From: Escherichia coli
Lineage (GTDB): Bacteria; Pseudomonadota; Gammaproteobacteria; Enterobacterales; Enterobacteriaceae
Length of the DNA stretch: 64,000 nucleotides
Strand: one strand, 5' to 3'
Assembly (NCBI RefSeq): GCF_013315695.1
Contig: NZ_CP054353.1
Below, piece by piece: positions 51,001-54,000 of the stretch (positions are counted from its first letter, which is position 1; the number at the start of each line of letters is the position of its first letter). Made by a program: the position numbers.

Positions 51001-54000
51001 TGACGAGTACCTGTTATACGCCTGTTGATTCATAACGCTCCCGGGCCTCCGCACACTTACTTTTCCTCCGTCACCCTCATGCAGAAGCGGGGGGTGACGG
51101 GCATACTGCGATACCACCACTGAATAATCCGTCTCAGCAACAGGGAACATTATAAGCCAAAGGATTGCTCATGCCATCTTATCAGTTTCTGGCTGTAGCA
51201 CGCATTCAGTTCAGGCAGCGTGATATTGTTTATTTCGGAAAGCAGGACATAGGTGGTTTTTCCTTCCTGCACGACAGAGAGCCTGAGTTGAGATGCAAGA
51301 ATGTTCAGCAGGACGTTCAGCTTTTTCCTGTTCCTGAACCGGCCCGGGCCACACTGGAGAATATAATTTTTCCTGACACGGGGCGGGCATTCTCCGCGGC
51401 ACTCCTCAATGAGCCAGTCGAGCAGCTCCCGGGCGTCCTGCAGCTGCAGTTCAGATTCATCAGGTAACGCAAATAATTTTTTATATTCATCTGTGTACCA
51501 CGAACTTATTACGACAGCAGACGTCATGATATCGGCAGAGATTTTCCCTTCACCCTGACTGAAATACTGCAATAATGCAGCAATTCTCGCAATGTTTTCT
51601 GTTTTTTTTGAAACATGCCCCCGAAACTGGCTTAAGGGTCCGGAAGGAGACAAATCCTGCTCCAGAACATTATAGTGATCAATAAATATTTTTTGCGCTT
51701 CAGGAGAAAAATGCAGACAATAACGTTCATCCTTACTGGATTTTTCAATACTGCCTCTGGCCAGCTCCATTAATCGTTCATGAAATGCCGTTAATGATCC
51801 TCCCGGGGTCACAGCTCCGTTAATAAAGCGTTTCCCCTGCGTGGTGGCAGGTTTACTGATTAGACAACGGGCAAGAAAACCACTGTCCCTGGCAACAGAA
51901 CCTTTTCGCTCCATATATCGGTCAAAAAGACCGGGTTGTACCATGAGGGATAATGTCATTCTGGCATTTTCAATCATCTGTTCGGGTTCATTCTTTCTGT
52001 CCACCGACAATACGGAGCTATCCCACATTTTGTTAATAAAAGGCAGCTCAGACAGGGTATACCCATCAAATATTATACCGGCTTAATCAGACATGATACC
52101 CACTGAACGCCACTGACCACAAAGCTGATCTTTAATTGCTGCTGTCGTGGCATCATTAAAAATGAATTTATATCTTACAGGTTTTTCCCCTCTGTTTTTC
52201 TGAAGCGCTTCCAGTTGTCTGAGCGTTTCTGACTCATCCGCGCCTTTGCGGAGTTCTTTATTCAGTTTTGACAACAATGCTTTTTTCTGCGCCTTTAAAA
52301 GCTCTTCCTTATTTTTCCATGTCGTCAGTTCATTTTTGTGTCTGGAATATAACAGCATCTCCTGCTGGTACAGGGGCTCCATTAATAATTTGTCCACTGC
52401 GTTTTTTCGTTCTCCGGACTCAGCAAGCGTCAGTAAGAAAAGAGAAACCGGCCCCCGTAGTGTATTCAGTCTGCAGACATCAATCAGATTCTGGCAGACA
52501 AGTGAAACAGCGCCCAGGGCAGATGCTGCCACAAGCCCCAGGGGAGCCTGCGTGATTTGCTGAGCTTCAATAACGGCATCACGAATGAGTGGAGGCAGCG
52601 AGCTCAGGGGAAACTCATCAGGATACTGAAAGTATGGCATAATGACCTCACAACACACAGAACATAAAGTACCGCAACTATTGCTACTAATAGCAAAAAT
52701 AGCAGCAGAATCAATATAGGATAAAAATTTCTGTCGATTTTCAGATTAAATAATAACCATTCGGTATTTTGTCGCTAAAGAATGTTAGAATGAATCTGTG
52801 CGTCTACGGGCGCTCTCCGGAACACACATGTTGATTAAATTTCACACAACAACGTACCAGCAAAAAGCATCATCCAGGGTATTGCAGGTACGGGTTTCCT
52901 GCCGGGAATAAACATAAACAGTTTCCCCGGAGTAACGCTTTCAGAAAACTGCCCTCCTGAAGAAGAATAAAATAAAGAAAATGACAGTTCCTGCACTGAA
53001 TGCTGAGTACAATATTCTATGGACAGGATGACATTTTTATAAATAACAAAAACCATTTAATACTGATACATCAATAAAATACTTCCTCCCTGCTGACACA
53101 GATAAAATGCACCATTTTTTCTTCAAATACTTCTGTATAATCGCCAGCCAATGATGAGAATGGATTAAAATAACACTTCTTCGACAAACACAAAAACCAG
53201 CCTTCATTTTCACATCATCATCCAGTTTTAATTAAACCCTGACGAGCGACAGTATTTCAGTTCAGGAATTAAAAGCCAGCTATTACTCAGTAAAAACACC
53301 ACCAACTAATAATATCTCAGCAGATATTTCCTGACCAGGATGACACATTTATTAAAGATTTTTAACAGGACACTTCACATTACTGAACGCTATTCCGACA
53401 GTATCACTACACAAATAAAAAAGGGAACTGGATAAATATTCATGCCGGAAGAATGGTGTAACAAAAGCATTTAATCATTACGTGCGTATTCCTCTCTATT
53501 CGATCACGGTTTGGCCAAACCGTGATCGATTCAGATGCCATTTTGCAAGTACGCATGAACCGGAAGGGAAACACTTAACAACATGGTATCAACAGATATC
53601 ATTACGTGCGCACTCTTATAAAAATACACAGCAGAAGCAAGATAACTCTAAACGTAAATTTAATATCTCCCACTGACTGCCCCGACAATATACTGAAAAA
53701 TACTCACCTCAGTAAACATAAACACACCTGATAATCAGGCTGCAAGATGAATATTTTTCTCCTTTACGGAGTAATCAGCCTGCTGTTTAACAATAACCGC
53801 GTATTTTCATGGAAGGATATCACCCAATAACGGATAACTCCTGCCCTCCTTCATGTTAATACGCAACATCCCCATCGATTCCAAACAATTTCAGACAGAT
53901 ATTATCTCCGTGGATCCCCCGCCACCTTTCCGGTGTGCGGGGTTTTGTCTTTTTTCACCGGGAATACATGTATGAATCCGTCTGATGCCATTGAGGCAAT

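Follow-up and report, generated by a model that had tools for sequence, protein, structure and literature searches.

The 64,000-nucleotide stretch of Escherichia coli DNA analysed here (assembly GCF_013315695.1, contig NZ_CP054353.1), which is referred to at its full length as the window, carries at 51150..52640 on the minus strand what is very probably a single gene of the yfjI family, inactivated by the change of GAA to TAA at codon 186 and located in the flu module of the genomic island GI-pheV. The block that holds this gene together with alpA belongs to the conserved, CP4-44/CP4-57-related flu module of GI-pheV of extraintestinal pathogenic E. coli, a well-known pathogenicity island of uropathogenic strains that also goes by the names PAI-CFT073-pheV and GEI II of Nissle. 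The island is of the intP4.1 type, as assigned from its attR repeat and gene modules and not from the integrase allele. An earlier note on this DNA had proposed that two neighbouring open reading frames (ORFs) are one disrupted gene of the kind that follows alpA in CP4-57-type elements, and that the absence of a tyrosine integrase and a tRNA gene nearby marks a decayed integrative element incorporated into the island. The present analysis bears out the proposal about the gene and leads to a different account of its surroundings.

The mechanical listing of ORFs on the minus strand gives an upstream ORF at 52083..52658 (191 codons from a GTG) and a C-terminal ORF at 51150..52028 (292 codons from the next in-frame ATG). 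These are the two halves of one yfjI gene. They share a single frame, which runs from the ATG at 52640 to the stop at 51150 and comprises 496 codons when translated, with a TAA at 52085..52083 as its sole internal stop; the 54 nucleotides between the two ORFs extend from this TAA to the next in-frame ATG, and the 18 codons that they contain (AGIIFDGYTLSELPFINK) are the same as in the intact homologue. The profile search of both halves, which the earlier note had suggested, finds adjoining portions of one Pfam domain, DUF3987 (PF13148): the upstream ORF matches model positions 1-151 (E=3.1e-35, 122.5 bits) and the downstream ORF matches positions 176-363 of 364 (E=7e-46, 157.5 bits), so that both halves exceed the gathering cut-off of 27 bits and the match is far above chance. 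The likely start is the ATG at 52640, which agrees with the homologues and with the NCBI Prokaryotic Genome Annotation Pipeline (PGAP), while the GTG at 52658 is disfavoured. From this start the N-terminal fragment occupies 52086..52640 on the minus strand (185 codons) and holds the Walker-A-like motif AESGERK[ST] and the Asp of the presumptive Walker B motif, and the C-terminal ORF spans what remains of the ATPase domain together with a predicted C-terminal winged helix. With its frame interrupted at codon 186, the locus is a pseudogene member of the DUF3987 family, an assignment made from the Pfam matches, the PGAP annotation of the E. coli MSB1_4I chromosome and the match to YfjI of E. coli K-12.

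The lesion is a nonsense substitution; there is no frameshift, insertion or deletion. Two other explanations of the interrupted frame were considered and rejected: a frameshift is ruled out by the frame that the two ORFs share, and programmed recoding by the nature of the stop (TAA) and its occurrence in one genome in about 757. Alignment with intact homologues located the damage at codon 186 (52083..52085, minus strand), which base-by-base comparison shows to be GAA (Glu) in Nissle, CFT073 and AF3, and the change from GAA to TAA corresponds to a G>T substitution on the coding strand at window position 52085. The 496-codon gene is intact at the matching place in Nissle 1917 and CFT073, and is intact in EC958 also. 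The window as a whole is 99.9% identical to the chromosome of MSB1_4I (NZ_LR898874.1), with 32 differences in 64 kb, and there PGAP labels the gene “YfjI family protein, internal stop”.

A 71-nucleotide probe centred on the stop has an exact match in one of 5,426 complete E. coli genomes, that of MSB1_4I. It matches 334 further genomes at 95-99% identity, and all 39 of these that are among the matches listed, including CFT073, EC958 and ATCC 25922, have exactly one mismatch; a further 422 genomes carry a more divergent allele at the probe. The frequency of the stop is one in about 757 complete E. coli genomes with this allele group, and related yfjI sequence occurs in 1865 of the 5426. The pseudogene is therefore strain-private and ordinary, and it has already been flagged by RefSeq. 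The G>T substitution at 52085 is one of seven differences between this yfjI and that of CFT073, and one of 14 between it and that of Nissle. Of the 14 positions at which it departs from the Nissle allele, nine lie within 60 nucleotides (52089..52143, minus strand) just upstream of the stop, and at these nine CFT073 has the version found in the window; this pattern points to a short recombination tract that separates two yfjI allele groups (334 versus 422 genomes).

The function that has been lost must be approached through the protein family. In the Enterobacterales (Dickeya, Yersinia, Enterobacter, Klebsiella, Salmonella and others) each homologue of YfjI is a single protein, with a length of 459-504 amino acids in nearly every case. 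The YfjI of the K-12 element CP4-57 (b2625) is a full-length homologue, with 52% identity to the Nissle orthologue over 460 gapless amino acids (E=5e-180), and it shares the invariant AESGERK[ST] and SDE motifs; the gene in the window differs from it in carrying the nonsense codon. In an alignment of 41 homologues, residues A73, S75, G76, E77, R78 and K79 are invariant and position 80 is a nearly invariant Ser (Thr in the reference row), and S184, D185 and E186 (SDE) and W206, D207 and G208 are also invariant. From this pattern of conservation AESGERK[ST] (residues 73-80) can be read as a variant Walker A motif and SDE (184-186) as a Walker B motif, on which basis the allele in the window is damaged in both, by T80N in the first and E186* in the second. 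Translation would stop right after the Walker-B Asp, to give a 185-amino acid fragment that lacks the presumptive catalytic Glu and everything downstream of it. Since the stop replaces the presumptive Walker-B Glu and truncates the protein after residue 185, YfjI activity would be expected to be lost, and the truncated product to be inactive; loss of function is a strong inference from these motifs.

Published work associates DUF3987 with helicases. Profile comparison has placed the domain, which has a winged helix at its C-terminus, among the MCM-like superfamily 6 helicases (PMC4889955), and it substitutes for known helicase domains in mobile-element primase fusions (PMC5862659). The only member of the family found with demonstrated 5'-3' helicase activity is AgaPH, a PriCT-DUF3987 protein of a Seonamhaeicola integrative element, in which mutation of Walker A or Walker B (DExx) abolishes the activity, and the authors of that work allow for a Walker A “with some variation” (PMC11724360). 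The likeness of YfjI to AgaPH is one of description and not of direct sequence comparison, and the two differ in that AgaPH has an N-terminal PriCT domain and an archaeo-eukaryotic primase (AEP) primase-polymerase as its partner, whereas no primase gene is annotated beside yfjI in the window. Intact YfjI matches PHROG 2373, “DNA helicase” (E=4.1e-81). An AlphaFold2 model built from the 41-sequence alignment has a mean predicted local distance difference test score (pLDDT) of 70.3 and a P-loop-like strand-loop-helix arrangement at residues 68-86. The top matches of this model in a Foldseek search of the PDB are the MCM subunits MCM4 and MCM5, which are weak (E=0.14-0.5, template modelling score <=0.23, with a probability of 0.87 for the match at E=0.14), and winged-helix proteins are also matched weakly, without being mapped to a region of the model.

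In CP4-57 of K-12, AlpA activates intA and the excision of the element. The position of yfjI in CP4-57-type elements, where it is collinear with alpA and yfjJ, suggests by analogy a role as a replication helicase: AlpA would promote excision, the YfjJ/gpII-like protein would initiate replication, and YfjI would unwind the DNA of the excised, circular element so that it can be replicated. On this scheme the unwinding step would be lost in the window strain. Several observations weigh against such a reading. The Walker-A-like motif departs from GxxxxGK[ST] in having Arg in place of the second Gly, and the pLDDT of the model falls below 50 over residues 161-232, a disordered part of the model that includes the proposed Walker B motif. 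No match at E<=0.001 is obtained when the model is compared with the PDB by Foldseek, nothing at E<=1 when the PDB is searched by phmmer with an intact homologue, and chance-level matches only (E>=0.78) when it is searched with the profile of the 41 homologues. A search of the literature for yfjI together with alpA found no functional study of YfjI. Finally, alpA, yfjI and yfjJ are not collinear in the module found in the window, and the operon logic of CP4-57-type elements may not transfer to it.

The arrangement of the island provides the context in which the pseudogene has to be understood. The earlier note's statement that no integrase or tRNA gene lies nearby holds for the 64-kb window: it contains no tRNA gene, a tblastn search of its whole length, with the pheV integrase and K-12 IntA as queries, shows no recognisable integrase fragment (best E=0.66), and PGAP places no tyrosine recombinase in the corresponding part of MSB1_4I. 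It does not hold beyond the window's edge. MSB1_4I carries, at 932749-934287, a tRNA-Phe gene (pheV) and an intact P4-type tyrosine integrase of 421 amino acids (35% identical to K-12 IntA), which lie about 13.8-15.4 kb past the left edge of the window and about 64 kb from alpA. The note's reading depended on no integrase lying just outside the window, and this is essentially where one lies.

At the opposite end of the island in MSB1_4I, about 5 kb past the right edge of the window, after the yee genes and before kpsF, stands the sequence (G)TTTCATTCCGATTCCGGGCACCA, which is an imperfect direct repeat of the 3' end of pheV (21 of 24 bases, and 17 of the last 18). It was found once, in direct orientation, at positions 37940-37963 of the MSB1_4I locus, between the AbiEii pseudogene and kpsF; the estimated chance expectation for such a repeat in the sequence searched is about 2e-4. 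A search of the window and its flanks for exact matches to the 3' end of pheV returns the tRNA itself only, so that mismatches must be allowed in order to find attR. The sequence TTTCATTCCGATTCCGGGCACCA is identical to the 23-bp attR published for the GI-pheV of Nissle 1917, JJ1886 and UMN026 (PMC11537424). Because pheV, the integrase and attR flank the module, alpA and yfjI sit inside an island, 84 kb in all, with its own integrase and attachment (att) sites.

The published description of GI-pheV accounts for this layout. The island is modular, with iuc/sat, nan, flu and yee modules parted by insertion sequence (IS) elements (Nhu et al. 2024, PMC11537424); intP4 is its only universally conserved gene, and an ancestral phage-like element at pheV, followed by gain and loss of modules, has been proposed as its origin (PMC11537424). 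The iuc/iutA/sat, flu and yee modules are all present in the PGAP annotation of the matching region of MSB1_4I. The gene order in the window is that of the GI-pheV flu module of CFT073, Nissle 1917, EC958 and UMN026 (PMC11537424), the DNA identity of yfjI to the alleles of these modules is 99.1-99.5%, and the island of the near-identical MSB1_4I is bounded as the published islands are, by pheV with a P4-type integrase on one side and by this attR on the other. The window differs from the published strains in its nonsense-mutated yfjI, which is intact in them. It also has ISEc22 beside the module, and no nan module separates the iuc genes from the flu module in the stretch examined. The order shared by CFT073, Nissle, SHP24 and RIVM_C029670 comprises two zinc-ribbon genes, a yfjJ-like “inovirus Gp2” gene, hha and alpA, and continues with a gene of 190-200 amino acids, yfjI on the opposite strand, a GTPase gene, agn43 and yeeR. 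No integrase adjoins the module in any of these four, and yfjI is intact in all of them.

The absence of an integrase beside alpA is accordingly the layout of all five E. coli islands examined and not decay specific to this strain, and the earlier note's use of it as a sign of a decayed element is not supported by the four islands that combine the same layout with an intact yfjI. In our reading, the alpA/yfjI block is the conserved backbone of a CP4-type element, and about 60 kb of virulence cargo now stands between this block and the integrase end. A possible but doubtful alternative, close to the earlier note's own, is that alpA and yfjI are the remnant of a separate CP4-57-type element which lost its integrase and tRNA target after its incorporation into the island and is no longer mobilisable. 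One argument for it is the contrast with other genera. A yfjI-type gene follows alpA in K-12 CP4-57, as the earlier note had said of CP4-57-type elements, and also in elements of Enterobacter and Yersinia, in which the integrase lies 2-7 kb from a collinear set of AlpA, DUF3987 and YagK/YfjJ genes, compared with about 64 kb from alpA in the present island; in K-12 CP4-57 the distance is about 1.2 kb. IS elements also part the modules, and several genes of the module are broken (yfjI, hha and the yagK fragment in the window, and AbiEii just past its right edge). A typical CP4-57-type element would have a P4-type integrase within a few kb of alpA beside a tRNA or tmRNA gene, which is not found here, and a collinear alpA-yfjI-yfjJ set, of which all three members are present with their order and strands rearranged. 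Against a separate remnant, the module lies between pheV/intP4 and attR, directly beside attR, a position that fits equally well an original backbone with cargo inserted between int and alpA, as the GI-pheV paper proposes; neither a second att repeat nor an integrase fragment flanks the module; and the integrase-distal layout is common to all five islands.

Common to CP4-57 and the present island are alpA, a yfjJ-like gene, a yfjP-like GTPase gene, and DUF932, antirestriction, RadC-like and CbtA/YpjF-type toxin-antitoxin genes. In CP4-57, yfjI is directly downstream of alpA on the same strand, whereas in the window the two are convergent with a gene of 190 amino acids between them. The Enterobacter and Yersinia sets and their defence cargo occupy locus positions of about 4350-17400, and the cargo follows directly after the set, as BREX genes (BrxL, PglZ) in Enterobacter and as HamA with a DEAD-box helicase (Hachiman-like) in Yersinia; elements of the CP4-57 type seem to serve as carriers of defence islands.

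The history of the allele can be partly reconstructed from a second genome. Besides the stop, the yfjI of the window has two missense codons at conserved positions: codon 80 (52401..52403, minus strand) is AAC (Asn) in place of the ACC (Thr) of Nissle and CFT073, at the Ser/Thr of the Walker-A-like motif, and codon 208 (52017..52019, minus strand) is AGC (Ser) in place of their GGC (Gly), at the invariant Gly of WDG. T80N and G208S are shared with one other complete genome only, that of the blood isolate AF3 (OZ547117.1). The first 1351 nucleotides of its yfjI are those of the window except at codon 186, which is GAA in AF3, and the gene is interrupted by IS1A at about codon 451 (positions 1553..3656 of the AF3 locus). 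This insertion is a second, independent inactivation of yfjI. Since AF3 carries T80N and G208S together with GAA at codon 186 and IS1A, the missense changes preceded both knock-outs, which arose independently as a nonsense codon in one genome and an IS1 insertion in the other. In this small lineage the gene thus seems to be undergoing decay, whereas every other island inspected has an intact copy.

The ratio of nonsynonymous to synonymous substitution rates (dN/dS) among intact yfjI alleles is 0.065 for Nissle versus CFT073 and about 0.35 for either of these versus the SHP24 allele, and these low values point to purifying selection on the intact alleles elsewhere. We infer that selection on yfjI has been relaxed in the present lineage; weighing against this, the three protein-changing and four silent differences from CFT073 are too few to demonstrate relaxed selection statistically. 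A bolder and improbable interpretation is that the sequence of events, T80N and G208S followed by a Walker-B nonsense codon and independently by IS1, represents repeated loss rather than drift, with selection favouring strains in which a costly replication module is silent or GI-pheV can no longer move; alpA, yfjI and yfjJ would then form the replication module of CP4-57-type islands.

It is very improbable that the stop is an artefact of sequencing or assembly and that the gene is intact in the organism. The change affects a single base in one RefSeq genome only, and the differences between the window and MSB1_4I cluster in paralogous genes of the yee module and include two single-base indels, which may be assembly noise. 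Yet the window and the complete MSB1_4I chromosome agree at this base while differing at 32 others; the change is a substitution and not a homopolymer indel; and the surrounding allele, with T80N and G208S, is corroborated by the independent genome of AF3. The window and MSB1_4I may, however, be two assemblies of one strain, in which case the stop might stem from a single sequencing effort. The notion that the two ORFs are independent functional genes encoding a naturally split, two-subunit YfjI, which the earlier note had named as a contrary outcome, is barely credible, for despite the length of both ORFs (191 and 292 codons) and the ATG with which the second starts, they form one frame with one TAA, the 18 codons between them belong to conserved coding sequence, the stop occurs in one genome only among those matching the probe stretch, the homologues are single polypeptides, the split falls inside the Walker-B motif, and there is no obvious ribosome-binding site just upstream of the ATG at 52028 (ttattaacaaa).

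The genes around the inactivated yfjI are a mixture of intact, broken and diverging ones. The alpA gene is present and intact at 50164..50370 on the plus strand, as the earlier note had placed it, and encodes a 68-amino acid helix-turn-helix (HTH), excisionase-like regulator, which matches Pfam Phage_AlpA (PF05930; 35.4 bits against a cut-off of 21, E=9.6e-9) and PHROG 66, “excisionase and transcriptional regulator” (E=1.9e-9), and is only 25% identical to K-12 AlpA. The 190-amino acid gene between alpA and the 3' end of yfjI (50456..51028, plus strand, convergent with yfjI) is a PGAP “hypothetical protein” (WP_001296389.1), and its product has no match in Pfam, NCBIfam or PHROG. It is 37% identical to its positional counterpart in SHP24, with flanking DNA that is 84-94% identical, and looks from these comparisons like a fast-diverging slot within an otherwise conserved module. 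The intact yfjJ/yagK-like gene at 47769..48338 on the minus strand is assigned by Pfam (YagK_YfjJ_C, E=2.7e-48) and by PGAP (“inovirus Gp2 family”); its product scores 24.4 bits against the REP_ORF2-G2P model, under the cut-off of 27.8. NCBIfam models match neither YfjI nor the 190-amino acid protein nor the YfjJ-like protein.

On the other side of yfjI, and divergent from it across a 1.3-kb spacer, a yeeP/yfjP-like gene occupies 53972..54844 on the plus strand (Pfam MMR_HSR1; “GTPase family protein” in PGAP). The IS102/IsrC small RNA lies between this gene and agn43, at 54948..55152 on the plus strand (Rfam RF00124, 258.9 bits, full length), and a scan of 44000-64000 with Rfam finds nothing else. 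A scan of 50000-54000 for promoters and terminators yields numbers that are not above the shuffled expectation (11 versus 6.7±2.6, and 5 versus 3.9±2.3, respectively).

Among the broken genes in the window, an hha-like gene (Hha/YmoA family) at 49067..49246 on the minus strand is N-terminally truncated; it is truncated in Nissle 1917 too, and intact (225 nucleotides) in CFT073. A 65-amino acid C-terminal fragment of YagK/YfjJ at 43891..44088 on the minus strand adjoins a copy of ISEc22 (IS66 family) at 44097..46550. In MSB1_4I an identical ISEc22 copy, close to the island's pheV end, disrupts a gene for a phosphoethanolamine transferase, and this pair of direct repeats could allow the deletion of about 55 kb of the island. 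The aerobactin synthase gene iucA (37655..39379, minus strand) contains a single in-frame stop (…GITVQ*AAHAW…) at about 38198..38200, and is likewise marked “internal stop” by PGAP in MSB1_4I; the island probably has no working aerobactin operon. Just outside the window in MSB1_4I, papC carries a frameshift, and both AbiEii and an antitoxin gene are broken. The broken hha, yagK fragment, iucA, papC, AbiEii and antitoxin genes fit a picture in which the island is decaying generally in this lineage. The 32 positions at which the window and MSB1_4I differ are concentrated in the yeeR, DUF932 and antirestriction genes (59373..60520, 62366..62399 and 63820..63924), which suggests either that paralogous yee modules have undergone gene conversion or that repeated DNA was assembled differently.

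Taken by itself the finding matters little: one more strain-private pseudogene is recorded in a pathogenicity island that has been described in depth. Both the island and the pseudogene are already known, the former as the published GI-pheV and the latter as an internal stop annotated in RefSeq. It is mildly interesting in that the stop strikes the presumptive Walker-B Glu while a sister genome, that of AF3, has inactivated the same gene independently. The finding also has a consequence for the recognition of mobile elements: the lack of an integrase near alpA is an unreliable sign of a dead element in large E. coli islands, because tens of kilobases of cargo part the integrase from the conserved backbone. 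For the family, the lesion removes what would be the catalytic Walker-B Glu from a member of a group only recently shown to contain helicases, and the window strain and AF3 are natural yfjI mutants. The alpA-yfjI-yfjJ set is a possible replication module of CP4-57-type islands.

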